A DNA stretch of 32,000 nt from Propionibacterium ruminifibrarum. GTDB lineage: Bacteria; Actinomycetota; Actinomycetes; Propionibacteriales; Propionibacteriaceae. Shown here in pieces: positions 5,582-32,000 of the stretch. How positions within the stretch are numbered: the stretch's first letter is position 1; the number at the start of each line of letters is the position of its first letter. The notes beneath the pieces are model-generated. The model did not search any database. It had not been told where the DNA came from and saw only the letters and a program-made list of their open reading frames with translations. Location of the stretch: the NCBI RefSeq assembly GCF_900289195.1, contig NZ_OMOH01000005.1:60001-92000 (forward strand), in the 5' to 3' direction. The translations under genes were made by a program, and so were the position numbers.

Positions 5582-7297
5582 TCAGATCCAGGTGCTGAAC
5601 CACATGCGCATGAGCCACTGGCGCCTGGTCATCAGGGCGTCGGTGAGGATCGGGTAGATGAAGATGAAGTTCGCCACGATGAGCACTGTCGCCGCAGTGG
5701 CGATGAACGCGCCCCGGCGGCGTCTGAGCGGCGGGGCGTCCGCCGGCCCGAGGATGCGCCCGAGCACCAGGGCCAGCACGGTGGCGGTGAACGGGATGAG
5801 CATGATCGCGTAGAAGAAGAACGTGGGGCGATCCGAGCTGGGGAACCACATCAGCCAGGTGGCCGCGGCGGCGACGATCGGCACGCAGTAGTTCCACTGG
5901 CGCCCCCCGATCCAGAAGAACAGGCCTGCGATGACGGCCAGGCACGCGAACCACCACAGGAAGGGGGTGCCGGCGCCGGAGATGACCCGCAGGCAGGTGT
6001 CGTCGACCGCGGTGCAGCCGTCCTCGCCGGGCTGGATGCCGTTGACCGCATCGATGCCGATGACGCGCGCCATGATCGGCCAGCCGGCCGGTTTCGCGTC
6101 GTACGTGTGGGTCTGCTCGGCGATCCAGTCACCGGTGTGGAAGGCGTAGATGTCGTAGTGGTAGTGCACCAGGCTGCCGAGGGCCGGGCCCAGCGCCCTG
6201 GTGAGGAGGTCGTCCGGGTGCTGGGCGCCCCACTGGCGGTCGTAGCCTCCGTCGGTGAGCAGCCAGCTCGTCCACGTCGCCACGTAGACGACGAGCGCCC
6301 CGACGACGAGATAGCAGAAGGCTGCCAGACCGTCGCGCACCAGACTGCGGACCGCCGAACGGCCCGCGCCGGCCATCAGGCGTGCCCGGTAGTCGTGGAC
6401 GAGGCTGAGGATGCCGAAGACGGCGAGGACGTACACGGCGTTCCACTTGCAGCCGCAGGCCGCACCGAAGAGCAGGCCGCTCGCCAGCCGCCAGGGCCGC
6501 CACAGCAGCAGCGGGCCGTACCCGCCTCCCAGGTTGAGCAGGTTGTTGGCACGCAGATGATCGGCCAGCCTGTGCCGGAACCAGTCGCGGTCGGCTAGCC
6601 AGCAGCCGACCGCCGCGACGGTGAAGAAGGCCTCGAAGATGTCGAGCAGCGCGATGCGGCTCAGCACGAAGCTCAGGCCGTCGACGGTGATGAACAGGCC
6701 AGCCATGGCACCCACCAGCGTGGACCGGCCCAGCCGGCGGGCCATGCGTACGACGGCGCCGATCAGCAGGCAGCCGAAGACCAGGGAGGCGAACCGCCAC
6801 CCGAAGGGCGTCATGCCGAACAGCTGCTCGCCGCTCGCGATGAGCCACTTGCCGAGCTGGGGGTGCACGATGAACGAGGGCGTGCTCGACCAGCCGTCCA
6901 CGACCCCTGCGGCGATCTGGTCGTTGGCGTCCTGCCCCCAGGTGCCCTCATAGCCCAGGTGCAGCAGCGTCCAGGCGTCCTTGGCGTAGTAGGTCTCGTC
7001 GAACTCGATGTACGCCGGTCGCCCGATGTTGACGACACGGATGGCGAAGCCGAGGGCGACCAGGACAACGGTCACCAGCCAGCTCCGCGCCTCGTCGAGT
7101 GCGAGGACGGCTGCCTCGTCCAGGCGTTCGATGGTGGAGGGCAGCACCGGGCGCAGGCCATCGCCGTGCCGGGGGGTGCTCGCCATGGCCGGGACCGGGA
7201 GTGAACTCACACGCTCCATGTTAAACGCCGGCCCCATGGGCGAGAGGAACCCTGAGTCGGCGTCACCGGACGTCCCCATTCCCGGCCGGGTGCGCAC
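5582..7297 (-). CDS. pmt: dolichyl/polyprenyl-phosphate-mannose--protein mannosyltransferase (GT39, Pmt)
   Basis: This 571-aa polytopic protein contains the N-terminal loop FDETYYAKDAW (the GT39 DE motif region), followed by multiple TM helices and a C-terminal PMT_4TMC-like end. Its position next to rsmI is conserved in Actinobacteria (Rv1002c/Rv1003). The start codon is uncertain because several in-frame Met codons occur. Confidence 0.85.
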   Translation of the reverse strand: MRTRPGMGTSGDADSGFLSPMGPAFNMERVSSLPVPAMASTPRHGDGLRPVLPSTIERLDEAAVLALDEARSWLVTVVLVALGFAIRVVNIGRPAYIEFDETYYAKDAWTLLHLGYEGTWGQDANDQIAAGVVDGWSSTPSFIVHPQLGKWLIASGEQLFGMTPFGWRFASLVFGCLLIGAVVRMARRLGRSTLVGAMAGLFITVDGLSFVLSRIALLDIFEAFFTVAAVGCWLADRDWFRHRLADHLRANNLLNLGGGYGPLLLWRPWRLASGLLFGAACGCKWNAVYVLAVFGILSLVHDYRARLMAGAGRSAVRSLVRDGLAAFCYLVVGALVVYVATWTSWLLTDGGYDRQWGAQHPDDLLTRALGPALGSLVHYHYDIYAFHTGDWIAEQTHTYDAKPAGWPIMARVIGIDAVNGIQPGEDGCTAVDDTCLRVISGAGTPFLWWFACLAVIAGLFFWIGGRQWNYCVPIVAAAATWLMWFPSSDRPTFFFYAIMLIPFTATVLALVLGRILGPADAPPLRRRRGAFIATAATVLIVANFIFIYPILTDALMTRRQWLMRMWFSTWI

Positions 7298-7395: not shown

Positions 7396-9777
7396 ATGCT
7401 GCGACACCGGATCATTCTCGACGGGCCGGCCACGAACCCCCGCGACGCCTTCCTGCTCGGCAACGGGCGGTTCGGTGCCGTCGCGCACGGCGGCATCGGC
7501 GCCGAGACCTTCGACCTGTCGCTCGACACCCTGTGGTCAGGCGGCCCCGTGCCACAGGCGGCGGACGATGGGCACCCTGACACGGCGATGCTCCTGCCGT
7601 CCCTGCGCGCCGCGATCGCCTCGGGCGATCTCGCCCTGGCCGGCGAGATCGTCGACCGGATGAGTGTCACACCAGCCGTCCAGACCAGCCAGCCCATCGG
7701 CACGCTCCGCTGGGAGTACGCGACCAGCCTTCGCACCCGCGGCTACAGCCGCGAACTCGACACCCAGACCGCCACCATGGCCACCACGGTGCGCGGCAAT
7801 GAACTGCGTACCTTCGTCAGCGCCCCCGCCGACGTGCTCGTCGCCGAGTGGAACGGTGCGGCGGGCGCCCTCAACGTGCCGAACCTGCGCAGCCCCCACC
7901 ACGGCAGCGTCCGAACCTGGCGTGAGGGTGAGGTGCTGTGGTTCGTCTTCTCAGCCCGCGTGCCCGTGGACGCCCGCGCCGGTGAACCCGTCCGCTACGG
8001 CACGGAGGCACCGGGGCCAGGGGGGAGCGTTCCGGCGGGCATGGCCTTCGCCGTCGCGGCCGCCGTCCAGCCGGTCGCCACGGGCTCGCGGCTGGTCGTT
8101 GCGGCCGAGAGCGGTTTCATCGCCTGGAACCGGCGCCCCTCCGGCGACACGTCCACGGCCGAACACATCGCCCGATACCGGGTGCGCAGTGCGCTGAGCC
8201 GCAGCACCGACGAGCTCCACGCCGAGCACGTCGCCGACTACCGCGCCCTGTTCGACCGCAGCGACCTGGACCTGTCGGAGTCCTGGCGCGGCGCCGAGGA
8301 CGAACTGGCCTTCCACCTGGGCAAGTACCTGCTCATCTCCGCCTCACGGGCGGGCTCGCAGCCCGTGCACGCCCAGGGCCTGTGGAACGCCCACGCCCGC
8401 CCGGCCGGCGAGGCCTACCGCGCCGACATGAGCCTGCAGATGAGCTACTGGGCGGCCGAGCGGCTCGGGCTGCCCGAGTGCACGGCACCGCTGCGCCGCA
8501 TGACGACCGAGCTGACCCAGACCGGCCGCGACCACGCCTGGAGGGACTTCGGTTTCTCCGGGGCCGTCGCATTCGAGAGCATCGACCTGTGGCGTGCATC
8601 CAGCACTCGCCTGTCCGACACGGGGCGGGCCTACTGGCTGGGAGCGCTGCCGAGCCTGGCGGCCGGGCTGCACGAGCACGCCCTGTTCACCGGCGACACC
8701 GCCAACGCCCTGTCCGTGCACCGCGTGGCCGCCCGCTTCGCCCTCGACCTGCTCGTCTCGGGTCCCGACGGCGACCTCGTCGCCAGTCCCTCGGCCACGC
8801 CCGGCGGCCGGTCCGGGGCCGACCCGGGCGGCGTCGTCGTGGCGGCCGGCTCGACCATCGACCGCGAGATCATCGTCGAGGTCTTCGAGCACTACCTCGC
8901 CCTGGTCGGCGACCAGCCGCGCGGCACGGACGTGGCGCTCGTCGGGCAGGTGCGCAGCGCCCTCACCCACCTGGCCCCGGTCCCCGTCGCCGACGGCGTC
9001 ATCACCGAATGGGGTGAGCGCCTGACCGGCGGGCGGGACGGCTCTGGTGCGCTGTCGCACCTGTACGGCCTCTTCCCGGGCAGACGCATCAACCACACCG
9101 GCCCCGAGATGCTCGATGCGGCGCGGGCCACCCTCCAGAGGGCGATCGAACGCGGCGCCGGCCGGACCGCCGCAGGCCAGGCCTGGATCCTCGCCATGGC
9201 CGCCCGGCTGGGTGACGGCCCCCTGGCCGGACGATCCCTGGAACGACTGACCGGGCCGCTCAGCTCGTCGTCCCTGCTGGCACTGGGCCGCGGCTCCCAG
9301 ACGCCCGGCACCGTCATCCAGCTGCCGGCCTCCCTGGCGCTGCCCGGGGCCCTCGCCGAGATGCTCGTCGGCTACGACGCCGGCGCCATCCGCCTGCTCG
9401 CCGCCCTGCCCGACCGGTGGCCGAAGGGCACCGCCCGCGGCCTGCGCACTGTCGGCGGGCACCGCGTCGACGTCACCTGGGACGAGGGCCAGCTCACCAG
9501 CGCGCGGATCAGGCCCAACTTCGGCTGCCGGATGCAGGTCGAGGCGGAGAACGGCCGCTTCACCATCACCGACGACGCCGGGGCGGCCGTCCAGTTCGCC
9601 CAGGTCACGGCCTGGAACCGCAACCGCAACCTGCTCAGCTTCCAGGTCGACGACGACCACAGCTACCTCATCACCCGCGAGGGCAGGGCCCGTCGCGGGG
9701 AACTGGCCGCCGGCGCGCCCGCCGTCAGCCTCGGCCCCGGCCTGTCAATGACCCTCTCAGGGCTCCCCACTGTGTGA
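7396..9777 (+). CDS. glycoside hydrolase family 95 (alpha-L-fucosidase-like), no signal peptide
   Basis: This is a 793-aa ORF. The RBS AGGAGGA (7381-7387) precedes the ATG at 7396. The N-terminal FLLGNGRFGAVAHGGIGAETFDLSLDTLWSGGP is the typical GH95 N-domain opening (LGNGRLGAM..G....E.I.LNE.TLWSG.P). The length fits the family. Confidence 0.8.
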   Translation: MLRHRIILDGPATNPRDAFLLGNGRFGAVAHGGIGAETFDLSLDTLWSGGPVPQAADDGHPDTAMLLPSLRAAIASGDLALAGEIVDRMSVTPAVQTSQPIGTLRWEYATSLRTRGYSRELDTQTATMATTVRGNELRTFVSAPADVLVAEWNGAAGALNVPNLRSPHHGSVRTWREGEVLWFVFSARVPVDARAGEPVRYGTEAPGPGGSVPAGMAFAVAAAVQPVATGSRLVVAAESGFIAWNRRPSGDTSTAEHIARYRVRSALSRSTDELHAEHVADYRALFDRSDLDLSESWRGAEDELAFHLGKYLLISASRAGSQPVHAQGLWNAHARPAGEAYRADMSLQMSYWAAERLGLPECTAPLRRMTTELTQTGRDHAWRDFGFSGAVAFESIDLWRASSTRLSDTGRAYWLGALPSLAAGLHEHALFTGDTANALSVHRVAARFALDLLVSGPDGDLVASPSATPGGRSGADPGGVVVAAGSTIDREIIVEVFEHYLALVGDQPRGTDVALVGQVRSALTHLAPVPVADGVITEWGERLTGGRDGSGALSHLYGLFPGRRINHTGPEMLDAARATLQRAIERGAGRTAAGQAWILAMAARLGDGPLAGRSLERLTGPLSSSSLLALGRGSQTPGTVIQLPASLALPGALAEMLVGYDAGAIRLLAALPDRWPKGTARGLRTVGGHRVDVTWDEGQLTSARIRPNFGCRMQVEAENGRFTITDDAGAAVQFAQVTAWNRNRNLLSFQVDDDHSYLITREGRARRGELAAGAPAVSLGPGLSMTLSGLPTV

Positions 9778-11575
9778 TTGATGTTTTGGACCTCTGCCAT
9801 GGCGCACCAGGACAACTCAATGGCCGCGTGACATTGACGCCAGCGATTCTGAGTCGTGGTGCACATTTTTATGAGTGGCGTTGAACTTCGCCACAGTCGG
9901 GTGTGCTGGGAGGAAGCAGGTTCATACCCCTGATAGCACCCTGAGATGTGAAGAATTGGCAGGAATTCAACTTTCTCCATGGCCTAGCGTCAGAGTTGTC
10001 TGTGCATCCGGTTGCATTGGCTGGAAAGGGTTGGCATGAATGTCAAGTTGAGAAGTGTTTCTGAAGCTGCTGATCTCATGGATTCCGATCCAGTGAGAGA
10101 ATTTCTTGTGGGATTTGATAATGGCCATGAAAAGGATTTAAGGAAAGGAAATTCTAATAGGACAGGGCTTGAAAAAATAGCAGCCCATGAAGGATTGGAA
10201 AGATGGAAGAAGGGCCACCCCAGGGTAGTGGCCTGGCTGACCCTTGTCTCTGCAGTGGTAACGCTTTTCTTGGTGGGTGGATTTGCCTGCGAAGTCTTTG
10301 TTAATTCACGATCTTCGGTTCCTGTGATTGTTGCGTGGGAACTTCTGATGATCCTCATTACTTGTACTTCTTTTTTACTGGTCTACCATGGTTTTCATGG
10401 TAGGCAAGTTCTTGCGGAGAGGGCTATGCGGTGCGTGGCGTCTCTCGCGAGATTCGTGGGTACCTTCCTTCAAATTCCACTGATGCTCTTTTCCTTGAGT
10501 ATGCTCGTGCTGCTCATTATCGCAGTTTATCAAGCGTATCCTGGTCGGGATTTACTGAGGCACATCAACTCACTCCTCATTGCGCTGCTCCTTACTTATT
10601 TTGGCCTGGGGTCTGCGGCTTTTTTGTATTATTCAAGAACTCAACTGGATTTCGGATTGAGGAGGCCGCATGTCATGCGACTGAGGCTTCTGATTGCAGT
10701 TTTTGGGAACTGCCTGTGGGCTCTCTTTGTAATTTCTTTCACACTCTTTGGGGTGCTCGCTGTCAGGAAATTAAAATCTTCAGATCATTCGCTGAAACTA
10801 AGCCTTGGTGGTCTTGTTTTTGATGTGTTTGATGTCTTTGTTGGCGTTGTGGTGTCAGGGGTATTGGCGGCTGTCATTCCCGTTTGGAAAACCCATGGAC
10901 GTGTCATGGGTGATGCCGTGGTGGTAATTGAGAGAGTTTTGATACTTATTCGAAAGGTGAAAACTGGTGATGATTGGAGGATGCTTGGGGTTGGGGATCT
11001 GGAAGCTATATATCTGGTGCTTGATCTGGAGAGGGTCTTGGGGGAAAACCTGTGTCCACAGTGGTGCCCACTCCGTTTCTCGATTGAATCCTTCAATTAC
11101 AGGACAATTCTTTGTCGAGAGGTGATGTTAATTCTTGGTGTTCGTTATCGCACTGTGGTTCCACAATTCGAATCGAAAAATTGGCTTCTGGAGAGATATG
11201 GTATCGAGCTGGGTGGATCTATTGCTGGTGTGGATGAATTGGTGAGAGAGCTGGAGCTGTTGAGAGACCAGCTCAAGGTGCGGACTTGGAGACCTTTTGT
11301 CAATAGTTGATAACAGTGTCAATGATAGATGTGTGATTGGTTTGGTCTGATGGAGATGAATATCATCTGTTGATGAAAATTGCCAAGCTCTGACATGATC
11401 CTTGGCTCTGGTTTCCGTGATAGAAGTCAGTGGTGACTTTTGCTCAGGCGATCGGTTGTGAGTCAATTTTCTTGCGCCAAGGGCTGGTGGACACAAGTTG
11501 AAGAAAACTTTTTTGCTGATCTATCCTTAATTTCGTGGATCATGAGGATACCAGGCAACCCATGAATGATTTCAG
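9778..11575. other. low-GC island (foreign-looking DNA) between GH95 and rsmI
   Basis: I counted GC by hand on 60-nt lines. Values are 38% (10081-10140), 45% (10261-10320), 40% (10321-10380), 45% (11521-11580) and 52-57% (9781-9900). The flanks give 78% at 9661-9720 and similarly high values from 11581 onward. The left edge coincides with the GH95 stop codon. The right edge falls within the first ~40 nt of the rsmI ORF. Confidence 0.85.
10036..11310 (+). CDS. hypothetical polytopic membrane protein (about 6 TM), no recognisable family
   Basis: This is the only long ORF in the island (track ORF 10012-11310, which starts at a TTG). I prefer the ATG at 10036, which is preceded by GAAAGGG (10024-10030). 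Predicted layout is a ~65-aa polar N-terminus, six hydrophobic segments (VVAWLTLVSAVVTLFLVGGFA, VPVIVAWELLMILITCTSFLLVY, FLQIPLMLFSLSMLVLLIIAVY, INSLLIALLLTYFGLGSAAFLYY, LLIAVFGNCLWALFVISFTLFGVLAV, LVFDVFDVFVGVVVSGVLAAVIPVW) and a ~135-aa soluble C-terminus ending in a coiled-coil-like ELVRELELLRDQLKV. Codon usage is AT-rich, unlike all neighbouring genes. Confidence 0.6.
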   Translation: MNVKLRSVSEAADLMDSDPVREFLVGFDNGHEKDLRKGNSNRTGLEKIAAHEGLERWKKGHPRVVAWLTLVSAVVTLFLVGGFACEVFVNSRSSVPVIVAWELLMILITCTSFLLVYHGFHGRQVLAERAMRCVASLARFVGTFLQIPLMLFSLSMLVLLIIAVYQAYPGRDLLRHINSLLIALLLTYFGLGSAAFLYYSRTQLDFGLRRPHVMRLRLLIAVFGNCLWALFVISFTLFGVLAVRKLKSSDHSLKLSLGGLVFDVFDVFVGVVVSGVLAAVIPVWKTHGRVMGDAVVVIERVLILIRKVKTGDDWRMLGVGDLEAIYLVLDLERVLGENLCPQWCPLRFSIESFNYRTILCREVMLILGVRYRTVVPQFESKNWLLERYGIELGGSIAGVDELVRELELLRDQLKVRTWRPFVNS

Positions 11576-12443
11576 GTCCGGCGGAAGTGTCGGACGTCTC
11601 GCCGGGCCGGGCACCCTCGTCCTGGCGGGGACGCCCATCGGCGACTCCACCCAGGTCTCCCCGCAGCTGCGCCGGGCGTTCGCCGAGGCCGACGTCATCG
11701 CCGCCGAGGACACCCGCCTGCTGCGCACCCTGCTGGCCCGCGCCGACGTCGAGACGAGTGCCCGCATCGTCAGCTACTTCGAGGGCAACGAGACCGAGCG
11801 CACCCCGCGCCTGATCGACGAACTGCGCGACGGCGCGGTCGTCGTCGTGGCCACCGATGCCGGCATGCCGTCGATCTCCGACCCCGGGTTCCGGCTCGTG
11901 CGGGCGGCCATCGAGGCCGGGCTGCGGGTGACGAGCGTGCCCGGGCCCTCGGCGGTGACGACCGCGCTGGCCGTCTCGGGGCTGCCCTGCGACCGGTTCT
12001 GTTTCGAGGGTTTCCTGCCGCGCGCCGCCGGCCAGCGGCGCCGCAGGCTGGCCGCCCTCGCCGGGGAGGAACGCACGATGGTCTTCTTCGAGGCCCCGCA
12101 CCGGCTCGCCGACTTCCTGGGCGACGCGGCGGCGGCCTTCGGCGACGACCGTCCTGGCGTGCTGTGCCGCGAACTCACCAAACCGTGGGAGGAGGTCATC
12201 CGGGGGTCCCTGTCCCAGCTGCGCGACTGGGCGGCAGAGCACGCCCGCGGCGAGACGACACTCGTCATCGCAGGCCGCACGGCAGACCCCGGCAGCGGCA
12301 TGGCCGAGGCCCTCGGCCAGGTCGACGAGCTGATCGGGTCGGGGGAGCGCCTCAGCCGGGCCGTCGCCCGGGTCGCCGAGGCGACCGGTGTCCGCAGGAA
12401 GGACCTGTACCAGGCCGCCCTCGCCGCCCGGGACGAGCCCTGA
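11535..12443 (+). CDS. rsmI: 16S rRNA (cytidine1402-2'-O)-methyltransferase RsmI
   Basis: The sequence LVLAGTPIGDSTQVSPQLRRAFAEADVIAAEDTRLLRTLL...MPSISDPGFRLV...PGPSAVTTAL is the tetrapyrrole-methylase-fold RsmI signature. The start is either GTG at 11535 or the in-frame ATG at 11562, and both lie in AT-rich island DNA. Confidence 0.9.
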   Translation: MDHEDTRQPMNDFRSGGSVGRLAGPGTLVLAGTPIGDSTQVSPQLRRAFAEADVIAAEDTRLLRTLLARADVETSARIVSYFEGNETERTPRLIDELRDGAVVVVATDAGMPSISDPGFRLVRAAIEAGLRVTSVPGPSAVTTALAVSGLPCDRFCFEGFLPRAAGQRRRRLAALAGEERTMVFFEAPHRLADFLGDAAAAFGDDRPGVLCRELTKPWEEVIRGSLSQLRDWAAEHARGETTLVIAGRTADPGSGMAEALGQVDELIGSGERLSRAVARVAEATGVRRKDLYQAALAARDEP

Positions 12444-19017: not shown

Positions 19018-19096
19018 TCCCTGGTTGGTCTGCCGGTAGGGCCCGCCTGACTTTGAATCAGGATTAGCGACGCAGGTTCGACTCCTGCCCAGGGAG
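19018..19096 (+). tRNA. tRNA-Gln (anticodon UUG)
   Basis: The acceptor stem is TCCCTGG (19018-19024) paired with CCAGGGA (19089-19095), with discriminator G at 19096. The anticodon stem CCTGA/TCAGG carries the loop CTTTGAA (TTG at 19053-19055). The T arm is GCAGG-TTCGACT-CCTGC (19072-19088). U1:A72 plus G73 fits Gln identity. No CCA is encoded. My hand fold leaves a 9-nt variable region and an imperfect D stem, so the exact geometry needs a covariance-model check. Confidence 0.8.
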
Positions 19097-30130: not shown

Positions 30131-30509
30131 GTGGCCCGATTGCCCGTTGGGGCAGAGAAGCCATGTTGACCGAGATCGCTACCGGCGCTGTCGAGCTCGT
30201 CGAGGGATTAGCCGGAGAGGATACCGTGCTCGAGCAGCTTCATCCTCATCACCTGAGTTGGCCGAGTTGGATAAGGCCCAGCGAGAGACGATTGCCGAGC
30301 TGGTGCGTCAGTGGCAAGGACGCTGGTATGGTCTTTACCGGTCCCGGGCGGGCTGTATGCAGGCGTTGACCGCTCAAGTGGTTGAGGCCACCTCGGGCGT
30401 GTTTGAAAGTACTGTGTTAAGGGTGTGCTTGTGAGTGTGTCGGTGTTGGTTGGGGGGCTCCCGTCTGGACGGGTTTGGTGTCGAATCGCTCCTATCTTCA
30501 CCGGGAGGG

Positions 30510-30857
30510 TTATTCAAAACTGTTTTTGTAGAATTCTGGTGCGATGATTGCTGTGATGGTTTGTGGGAGGGTGTGGATGGGCCTGCGGTAGCCGGTGTGG
30601 AGTGTCTTCCAGGTTTTCAGGTGGGCGATTGCTCGTTCGACTGGGGCTCGTAATGAATTGGTGGCGTGGTTGTATTGTTTCTGCCAGTCTGTGAGCTCGC
30701 CGCCTAGTGGTTTGCGTATCGGGGTTGTCATGCCCAGCCCGGTGTAGCCCTTGTCACCCAGTGGTGGGGTGTCCGGGAAGCCGTCAAGAAAACCCGTGGA
30801 TTGGATGGCTTTCGCGTCGTGGGTCGATCCGGGGGGTGTCCCTATGTTTCTTGTCAA
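30510..30857 (-). pseudogene. C-terminal fragment of a DDE_Tnp_4 (Harbinger/PIF-like, IS5-type) transposase
   Basis: PPGSTHDAKAIQSTGFLDGF...LGDKGYTGLGMTTPIRKP.GGELTDWQKQYNHATNSLRAPVERAIAHLKTWKTL matches the distal part of that family (PGSxHD ... DxGY ... N...S..R..VE..ia.LK.W.iL). The N-terminal half carrying the first catalytic Asp is absent. The fragment starts (TTG) exactly where the IS110 transposase ORF ends. Confidence 0.7.
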
Positions 30858-32000
30858 GCGGCGAGGGGTGTTGGGGCTGGTTTGGGTGTCTGGTAGGTTT
30901 CTTGGTTCTTGATCATGGCGAACAAGACGTCACAGCGGCGGCGGGATAGACAGATCAGGGCTGCGTTGTGTTTTTTGCCTTGGGCTCGTTTGCGGTCGTA
31001 GTAGGCCCGTGAGACGGGGTCTGCTCTCAGCGCGGCGAAGGCTGACAGGAACAGGGCTCGTTTGAGGTGTTTGTTGCCTGACCGGGCGGGGAACTCGCCG
31101 CGGATACTGGTCCCTGAACGACGGGTGATGGGGGCGAGTCCGGCGTAGGCGGCAAGGTGTCCAGCGGTCGGGAACTGTGAGGCGTCACCGACGTCGAGCA
31201 GGATCCGCGCTGCGGTCCTGACCCCGACGCCTGGCATCGAGATCAGGACCTCGGCAAGAGGGTGAGCATCAACAACCTTCTCGACCTGGCTGGCGAGCTC
31301 GGCCCGCTGGTCCAGGACCTGGCGCAGGGATGCCGCCAACTTGGGTAGGACCTGCTCGGCTGCAGCCGTCCCGGCGACGACAACGGTCTGTTCTGCCAGC
31401 GCTGTGGTGATCGCGTTGGCGAAGTCGGCCGCGCCGCGCGGGTTGGCCTTGTTGATCACTCGAAGCATGCGGCTTTTCGACGCGGCTGTCATGCCTTGAG
31501 GCCCGCCGAGTTGCTCGATGACGGCCAGGCCTTGCTTGGTGGCCAGCCTGGGCCCGATGACGCGTTCTAGTGCGGGATGGATTTGTGTCAGCAGGCCGCG
31601 GATACGGTTCGACAAGCGAGTCGCTTCGGCGGCGAGGTCCTCGTCAAAGCCGACCAGTACCTTCAACTCCGCCAAAGTGTCCTCACCGGCATCGACGCGA
31701 CGTAGTGTGTGGGGCATGCTCCGGGCGGTCTCGGCGATGACGAACGCGTCACGGGCATCGGTCTTCACGTTGCCTGGGTAGAGGTCGGCTGCGCGGCGCA
31801 TCGCCAGCCCTGGAAGATAGGCGACAGTGATGCCCATCGACCTGGCGACCGCGATTGGTAACGCGCCGATCGTGTTGGGCTGATCAACGATCACCAACAT
31901 CTGGCCAAGGCCCTCAAGGCGGGTGAACAGTTCCTCCAAGCGCTTCTGGTCTTGTGGCAGGGGCTTGTCGAACACTCGTCTGCCAGCAGCATCCAGAGCG
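30854..32000 (-). mobile_element. IS110-family insertion sequence; transposase ORF, N-terminus beyond the window edge
   Basis: The minus-strand frame stays open past the listed Met to the window edge (..ALDAAGRRVFDKPLPQ..). VIVDQPNTIGALP...KTDARDAFVIAE is the DEDD_Tnp_IS110 domain. MPGVGVRTAARILLDVGDASQFPTAGHLAAYAGLAPITRRSGTSIRGEFPARSGNKHLKRALFLSAF...YYDRKRAQGKKHNAALICLSRRR is the Transposase_20 domain. Confidence 0.9.

Follow-up and report, generated by a model that had tools for sequence, protein, structure and literature searches.

In replacement flexible genomic islands, divergent content is found at the same site in all strains, within near-identical surroundings and with substitution peaks at the boundaries, and its exchange is inferred to take place by homologous recombination in these conserved boundaries (Lopez-Perez, Martin-Cuadrado and Rodriguez-Valera 2014, PMC4033161). 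Such islands are multi-gene clusters of 20-40 kb associated with surface glycans or appendages, and the genes found in different strains are usually unrelated (PMC4033161). Here, we describe a locus of Propionibacterium ruminifibrarum JV5 that has the same layout but is built on a single 1.3-kb gene. This gene, PROPJV5_1493, lies on the forward strand of a 32,000-nt stretch of DNA (hereafter the window, to which coordinates refer unless another locus is named), in a low-GC cassette located between a GH95 glycosidase gene and rsmI. Unlike the content of known replacement islands, its versions are homologous (47-59% identity) and mosaic, they encode an orphan protein with conserved cytoplasmic parts, and the corresponding site is empty in sister species. 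In population-genomic terms, the locus represents the known replacement-island type, pared down to one gene whose versions are homologous but highly diverged; the encoded protein is a member of no known family.

Several other systems share some of these features. With the agr locus of Staphylococcus and the comQXP locus of Bacillus, it has in common a hypervariable segment with sharp limits set between conserved flanks, discrete classes within a species, and a polytopic protein combining a variable membrane part with a conserved cytoplasmic part. In contrast to both, it has no kinase domain, signal-peptide gene or processing enzyme, and the whole gene is divergent and low in GC, together with its two non-coding arms. 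Abortive infection (Abi) and superinfection-exclusion genes of the lactococcal type are, as here, single accessory genes that are variable among strains, with a GC content below that of the host, often without relatives and in some cases membrane-anchored. Known Abi genes, however, usually vary by presence or absence, or as the occupant of a hotspot, whereas here allele classes of one gene are found at one site, and the orphan protein is matched by no PADLOC or PHROGs model. The minimal mobile elements of Neisseria are also small cassettes set between conserved genes and devoid of mobility genes and terminal repeats, with flank-homology exchange and some empty sites, but they usually carry alternative and unrelated cargo, where this locus has diverged versions of one orphan gene.

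PROPJV5_1493 is a real gene under selection, restricted to one species and the sole gene of a 1.8-kb cassette. A first-pass annotation, made from the letters of the window alone, had proposed an island open reading frame (ORF) of ~424 codons, which was borne out at 10036-11310 on the forward strand (424 amino acids (aa) plus a stop codon). Its ATG start codon is preceded by GGAAAGG (10023-10029), a Shine-Dalgarno-like sequence, and the alternative TTG start at 10012 is not kept in the other alleles. The N-terminal pattern M-x-x-x-x-RS-x-S...D-x-MDS is common to the three alleles when the upstream start is used in locus L001. The frame is intact in three allele classes (see below) and three within-class variants, with no frameshift in any of these six sequences. 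This conservation, together with ratios of nonsynonymous to synonymous divergence (dN/dS) of 0.18-0.48 over saturated synonymous sites (dS), supports the coding sequence call.

The island spans 1.8 kb with 46% GC, within DNA of ~70-75% GC (genome ~72%), a drop of 26 points. GC at third codon positions (GC3) is 0.46 in the gene and 0.91-0.94 in neighbouring genes, and the low values are common to all three allele versions (GC 44-46%, GC3 43-46%, against a GC3 of 91-94% in the flanks). The gene contains several codons that are rare in the host, namely 5 TTA, 3 ATA, 23 AGA/AGG (67% of its Arg codons) and 16 TTT, for which the 793-codon GH95 gene has 0, 0, 5 and 0, respectively; this usage may slow translation in the host or make it reliant on rare tRNAs. 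The first-pass annotation had portrayed a foreign gene standing alone in a low-GC island. The gene is indeed alone and low in GC, and the site is empty in sister species, but a foreign origin is not demonstrable, since no donor or relative turned up among about 15 billion proteins and only one species is known to have the family.

Few other elements were recognised in the cassette, which has no mobility gene. Its upstream non-coding arm (9778-10035, forward strand), low in GC and highly divergent among alleles, includes the Shine-Dalgarno-like GGAAAGG and presumably holds the promoter of the ORF. No att sites, target-site duplications or terminal inverted repeats common to the three alleles were found at the island ends, and terminator prediction returned nothing within the island. 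The Rfam search of the window revealed no structured RNA in the island, the sole match at the gathering threshold being a tRNA at 19018-19096. Nor was any conserved small ORF or partner peptide found in the island, as cross-allele matches were all shadow frames of the main ORF. The literature mentioning P. ruminifibrarum contained nothing on the GH95-rsmI locus.

The gene occurs as three or more deep, mosaic and stable allele classes on near-identical backgrounds. The loci of the species that span the site form a small sample (the window, L001-L007 and L095-L097), and in all these contigs the island is present between GH95 and rsmI. The only relatives of the protein are two other versions, 47-59% identical to it, which other strains of P. 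ruminifibrarum encode at this very site. Between strains, the GH95, RsmA and IspE proteins and the protein O-mannosyltransferase (PMT) encoded next to GH95 are 99-100% identical, and RsmI 94-100%. Flanking DNA of the window is 99.72% (over 8,850 nt) and 99.85% (over 9,710 nt) identical to that of L001, and 98.9% (over 3,215 nt) to that of L007. With the same site and such near-identical neighbours, these relatives are therefore alleles and not orthologs. With blastn, the island of the window gave no alignment to that of L001 and a partial one to that of L007 (82%, covering the final ~500 nt of the ORF and what follows). The limits of the divergent block match those of the low-GC island, and it extends from the GH95 stop codon (9777) to ~11597, within the first ~21 codons of rsmI. 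The anatomy of a lone island drawn by the first-pass annotation was thus correct, but this annotation had missed that the island is a hypervariable allelic cassette, and that the variable block includes the promoter and first codons of rsmI. Allele classes are discrete and stable. Class A, to which the window belongs, was found again in three other contigs, where the protein has only 1-2 aa changes; 6 of the 1275 nt of its ORF differ between strains. For class C, five contigs derived from separate samples share one and the same nucleotide sequence at the locus. The class-C strain also carries an insertion sequence (IS; DDE_Tnp_1/DDE_Tnp_4, L001 8963-9873, with 23-nt inverted repeats) upstream of the orphan gene.

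Both edges of the cassette bear marks of exchange. The left recombination boundary lies in the 3' end of the GH95 gene (9678-9777 of the Pfam GH95 gene at 7396-9777, forward strand), where a substitution peak was observed: strains differ by 10-14% in the last 50 nt and by 2-6% in the adjoining 50 nt, for a background of 0.2-0.9% that is reached within 100-400 nt. The right edge is sharp. It falls in the variable first ~21 codons of rsmI (11535-11597 of the gene at 11535-12443, forward strand), where the window and L001 show 17 differences in 26 nt, then none for 1.8 kb, identity being back to 98-100% at 11598. The alleles are mosaic, with a maximum chi-square of 65.6 at ~11151 that none of 500 permutations reached. 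Over 10276-11115, B and C group together to the exclusion of the window allele, and over ~11151-11597 the window allele groups with B. The breakpoint falls in the most conserved DNA of the gene, which encodes the C-terminal domain. From these patterns, we infer that cassettes are swapped through homologous recombination acting on the flanks.

Sister species, reached through RsmI homologs and contig look-ups, have an empty site. In P. australiense (RsmI 90% identical) and in two uncultured Propionibacterium lineages (80-82%), the order PMT-GH95-rsmI-tatD-rsmA-ispE is kept, with a high-GC gap of only 26-153 nt between GH95 and rsmI. No comparable GC dip near rsmI was detected at 80 other actinobacterial rsmI loci, among the matches listed, to which the closest species do not belong. 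Together, these data indicate that the cassette is specific to P. ruminifibrarum.

The first-pass annotation had described a protein with six transmembrane (TM) segments and soluble N- and C-terminal domains, without recognisable family, and this description held in every sequence, profile and structure search that was run. Hydropathy places the six hydrophobic segments at residues ~64-86, 97-119, 137-165, 173-197, 218-240 and 264-284, which are also helices in the AlphaFold2 (AF2) model. Based on Lys/Arg counts in the loops and the positive-inside rule, the N-terminus, the TM2-3 and TM4-5 loops and the C-terminal domain are all predicted to be cytoplasmic. The protein can be divided into a cytoplasmic N-terminal domain (residues 1-63; 10036-10224, forward strand) that is ~51% identical among alleles, a six-TM region (residues 64-284; 10225-10887, forward strand), and a cytoplasmic C-terminal helical-bundle domain (residues 285-424; 10888-11307, forward strand) that is 67-72% identical and contains an invariant VPQFESKNWLLERY block. 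Mean identity between alleles is 62% in the cytoplasmic parts (70% in the C-terminal domain), 42% in the TM helices and 36% in the external loops; cytoplasmic loops within the six-TM region are 47-57% identical. All indel columns fall in the external loops, which are predicted to be just 7-23 aa long, and the conserved parts of the protein are cytoplasmic. Within the membrane region, polar residues including E102, N225, W228, D263 and S274, and a TM6 motif (G270-V-x-V-S274-G275) are invariant, which suggests a packed helical core; H287, directly after TM6, is also invariant. The C-terminal domain is all-helical. While the full-length AF2 model is poor (mean predicted local distance difference test (pLDDT) score 48.7), this domain alone yields a moderate five-helix bundle (pLDDT 69.7, predicted template modelling score 0.68). 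The four Cys previously attributed to the domain are in fact three (340, 344 and 360), of which only C340 and C360 are conserved across alleles. As the CPQWC sequence is confined to the window allele, other alleles having CSGWY, there is no conserved metal-binding site.

Database searches confirmed the orphan status of the protein. Relatives beyond the three clusters were found neither by a word-indexed search of 5.8 billion clusters, nor by an exhaustive phmmer search of 1.84 billion representatives, nor with a three-sequence profile, which leaves no relative among about 15 billion proteins in total. IMG/VR contained no relative, and pattern scans of JGI metagenome contigs returned none, in a collection without the samples bearing the known loci. 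No credible match was obtained with Pfam, NCBIfam, PADLOC or PHROGs. The top curated-family matches, Pox_I5 (E = 0.07) and MAG2810 (E = 1.1), were discarded as TM noise, and PDB sequence and profile matches were designed TM helices (E about 0.03) reflecting low-complexity matching. Foldseek searches with the C-terminal domain against PDB and BFVD identified only generic helical bundles at chance level (best E 0.74 and 0.34), with no confident fold match. The absence of K-channel (T[VIL]G[YF]G), EExxxR and Walker A motifs noted from the sequence was verified, and HExxH and CxxC motifs are also absent from the protein.

Several family assignments were specifically considered and rejected. A CPBP/CAAX protease (Abi, PF02517), whose hallmarks are EExxxR, FxxxH and HxxxN motifs, has no Pfam match and no EExxxR to support it, and the sole FxxxH is in the soluble N-terminus. 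A voltage-gated-like 6-TM cation channel (Ion_trans) would have an Arg-repeat S4 and, between TM5 and TM6, a re-entrant pore loop with a selectivity filter; there is neither a Pfam match nor a T[VIL]G[YF]G signature, and few segments vary as much as the TM5-TM6 loop, which contains indels. For a HEPN toxin, which would have a four-helix fold and a catalytic Rx4-6H, Foldseek scores are at chance level (E 0.87-1.3, TM-score 0.33-0.36), and no Rx4-6H is conserved in the C-terminal domain. An HPK10-type receptor kinase (AgrC/ComD-like), which would join a polytopic sensor to DHp and HATPase_c domains and have peptide and processing genes next to it, was set aside in the absence of HisKA and HATPase_c, with an all-helical C-terminal domain and no conserved small ORF. 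Wzy proteins have 10-14 TM segments and a large external loop, Wzx proteins have the MOP fold, and both are located in glycan clusters; this type of O-antigen protein was rejected on the basis of the six TM segments, tiny external loops, lack of family match and single-gene island.

Divergence between alleles is deep and constrained. Inter-allele dS is 0.7-1.3 overall and reaches 2 in the TM region, with dN/dS values of 0.18-0.32 for the N-terminus, 0.26-0.48 for the TM region and 0.21-0.28 for the C-terminal domain. All versions are therefore functional genes under purifying selection. By comparison, dS in the flanks is 0-0.03 within the species and 0.28-0.41 to the sister species lacking the island. 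The alleles thus appear at least as old as the separation of the species, despite the empty sites of the sisters. Between two class-A strains, silent changes amount to 4/312 in the ORF and 13/2553 in the flanks (p = 0.095), a rate at most ~2.5-fold higher.

The non-coding spacer between the ORF and the rsmI promoter (11311-11497, forward strand) is a substitution hot spot even within class A. Over 11311-11597, 15 of 287 nt (5.2%) differ between the same two strains, compared with 13 of the 2553 flank synonymous sites (0.5%; p = 9e-9), and their flanks differ by ~0.2% overall. Nearly all changes in the hot spot are transitions, and they are divided over both lineages, which rules out a single imported patch. 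Base usage at silent sites is also unusual. At four-fold sites of the orphan ORF, C is 0.14-0.19, T 0.34-0.38 and G ~0.30, while the flanks have 0.60 C and 0.03 T, with G alike. This C-poor, T-rich strand asymmetry extends over the ORF and downstream spacer (10036-11571; also in L001 and L007) and spares the upstream arm; transcription-linked bias, donor codon usage and selection are candidate causes.

Downstream of the spacer, a putative rsmI promoter (11498-11534, forward strand) was recognised from its sequence only, with TTGAAG (11498-11503), 18 nt, TATCCT (11522-11527), 7 nt and the GTG start codon. This pattern is conserved in all three alleles, and P. australiense has the same geometry of -10 element, 7 nt and GTG (TATCGT-cgtacag-GTG, L089 about 6975-7003) in an unrelated surrounding sequence. 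This layout suggests leaderless-type expression of rsmI. The MDHED start of RsmI is conserved among alleles via synonymous changes. As rsmI is directly followed by tatD, rsmA and ispE, and the variable block carries the promoter and first codons of this run, simply deleting the cassette would probably carry a cost; this may be the reason for its retention in all strains sampled.

Taken together, these data lead us to propose, tentatively and at somewhat less than even chance, that the locus is a single-gene replacement-type island, shaped by recombination and balancing selection, with a strain-specific role in conflicts at the membrane. Whole cassettes would be exchanged by homologous recombination in the conserved flanks, and the classes would be kept by balancing (negative frequency-dependent) selection. 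In what are the weakest steps of this scheme, the variable membrane module might set strain specificity, and the conserved cytoplasmic module might serve a shared function, for instance as an effector or in oligomerisation. The antagonistic interaction at the membrane would most likely be phage exclusion or abortive infection, or else immunity to a membrane-acting toxin. Among the functions listed by the first-pass annotation (Abi or exclusion, immunity, transporter or channel), there is no channel or transporter signature and no PADLOC match, and hypervariability, which is typical of genes engaged in strain-specific conflicts with phages or competitors, makes a conflict role more plausible; membrane exclusion, defence or immunity is our leading guess, loosely held.

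A number of observations weigh against this proposal. dN/dS never exceeds 1 and thus does not demonstrate that the variable module is under positive diversifying selection, and the faster evolution of the TM region may reflect weaker constraint only. External loops of 7-23 aa provide a poor recognition surface. Balancing selection was deduced from the depth of divergence and not from allele frequencies, because only three classes and a handful of samples were available. The dS between alleles exceeds that to the sister species although the latter lack the island, and a silent rate increased by at most ~2.5-fold explains this age paradox only in part. Zero PADLOC-DB 2.0 families at E <= 10 and no PHROGs model match the protein, and a search of the island revealed no partner gene or conserved small ORF. 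Finally, the IS of the class-C strain ends just 86 nt before the orphan start codon.

Proximity of this IS, which shows that insertion close upstream of the gene is tolerated in one strain, is also in line with a different explanation, which we regard as rather unlikely, namely that the ORF is a functionless or silenced xenogeneic passenger, kept for the promoter and start of the rsmI-tatD-rsmA-ispE run that lie within the variable block, and that the classes reflect introgression from unsampled relatives. The foreign-like composition of the gene (GC3 0.43-0.46, AGA/AGG at 67% of Arg codons, 5 TTA versus 0 in GH95) is consistent with this. In actinobacteria, AT-rich DNA is a known target of Lsr2-type silencers (PMC7002338, PMC6584129), and with its GC drop of 26 points the island is AT-rich relative to the genome. 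However, dN/dS of 0.2-0.5 over saturated silent sites in all domains, combined with intact ORFs in six variants, indicates purifying selection throughout the divergence of the alleles, and searches detected no other host or donor. Composition could otherwise have been lowered by locus-specific hypermutation, deaminase-like or transcription-associated, giving one recent insertion a seemingly ancient divergence. The strand asymmetry of silent sites in the ORF and downstream spacer, which might hint at cytosine deamination on the coding strand, and a spacer evolving ~10 times faster than flank silent sites speak for such a process, but it is now largely refuted and its probability is very low. 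The polarised third-position spectrum among alleles is stationary and symmetric (GC>AT 86, AT>GC 94; C/T and A/G 176 each; transition/transversion ratio ~2), the class-A ORF differs at only 6/1275 nt with no significant excess of silent changes (4/312 vs 13/2553, p = 0.095), and the class-C locus is nucleotide-identical in its five contigs. This spectrum and the stability within classes rule out deaminase-type hypermutation and ongoing GC decay; they indicate that the composition is at equilibrium, neither decaying nor ameliorating toward that of the host.

Two further explanations assign the protein to known functional types. Serotype-specific polytopic proteins are low in GC and near-orphan, and the product might be an envelope-modifying enzyme or transporter comparable to serotype-specific Wzy, Wzx, GtrC or Oac, in which case a swap of alleles would alter a surface polymer and thereby phage sensitivity. 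Genes for exposed structures and for the glycosylation of these are typical of replacement islands (PMC4033161), and the neighbouring genes encode a PMT and a GH95 glycosidase. This adjacency is uninformative, since both genes are equally present in the sisters lacking the island, and with just six TM segments, very short external loops, conserved parts that are cytoplasmic, and no Pfam or NCBIfam match to polymerases, flippases or acyltransferases, we consider this possibility improbable. An even slimmer chance is given to a pherotype-like receptor of the agr/comQXP type, in which a variable membrane sensor, coupled to a signalling domain conserved in the cytoplasm, would recognise a strain-specific signal. 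The succession of a polytopic N-terminal part that varies and a cytoplasmic C-terminal part that is conserved, sharply bounded hypervariable DNA and the invariant H287 next to TM6 are reminiscent of such receptors, but the protein has no histidine-kinase, HATPase or other signalling domain, and neither a conserved gene for a peptide precursor or its processing in the island nor an adjacent response regulator was found.

Beyond the cassette, other traces of genome plasticity were observed. A second patch of lower GC in the window (30147-31975, 59-61%) consists of IS debris, in which an IS110-family transposase (30854-31975, reverse strand) abuts a truncated DDE_Tnp_4/DDE_Tnp_1 fragment (30510-30857, reverse strand) with 91.5% DNA identity to the intact IS of the class-C strain (L001 8963-9873). 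In the lineage with an 80% identical RsmI, the region past ispE differs (L093 10984-13513), with an extra DUF3995 gene, small ORFs and a DUF2330 gene of only 90 aa, and represents a second variable spot in the same neighbourhood. In a class-C metagenome contig (L003 1634-3111), a xanthine/uracil permease is split into two ORFs of 205 and 287 aa instead of 494 aa, owing either to a frameshift that made it a pseudogene or to misassembly.

Returning to the single-gene replacement-type island, its confirmation would provide a minimal hypervariable locus of this kind, with one gene in 1.8 kb, sharp edges, an empty site in sisters and mosaic alleles, in which allele swaps would be experimentally simple compared with glycan islands of 20-40 kb. 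The protein family, without relatives yet under purifying selection, would also be a candidate for a new conflict function (defence, exclusion or immunity) at the membrane in rumen actinobacteria, a group in which little is known of such systems. That the alleles have diverged by over one substitution per silent site and still remain at 45% GC3 within a genome at 93% GC3, with no donor detected, would bear on how GC content is maintained in bacteria, whether by mutation bias, selection or biased gene conversion, and on the habit of deducing a recent foreign origin from low GC alone. A more ambitious reading, to which we give little credence, is that the gene founds a new family of membrane-anchored determinants of strain specificity (phage exclusion, toxin immunity or kin discrimination) in one rumen species, maintained as an old, recombining, balanced polymorphism whose GC3 of ~45%, versus ~93%, is held by a locus-specific force. 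This force could be selection for silencer binding, or the loss of GC-biased gene conversion between alleles that are too diverged. If this were true, the locus would offer a compact natural model of the interplay between balancing selection and base composition in bacteria.

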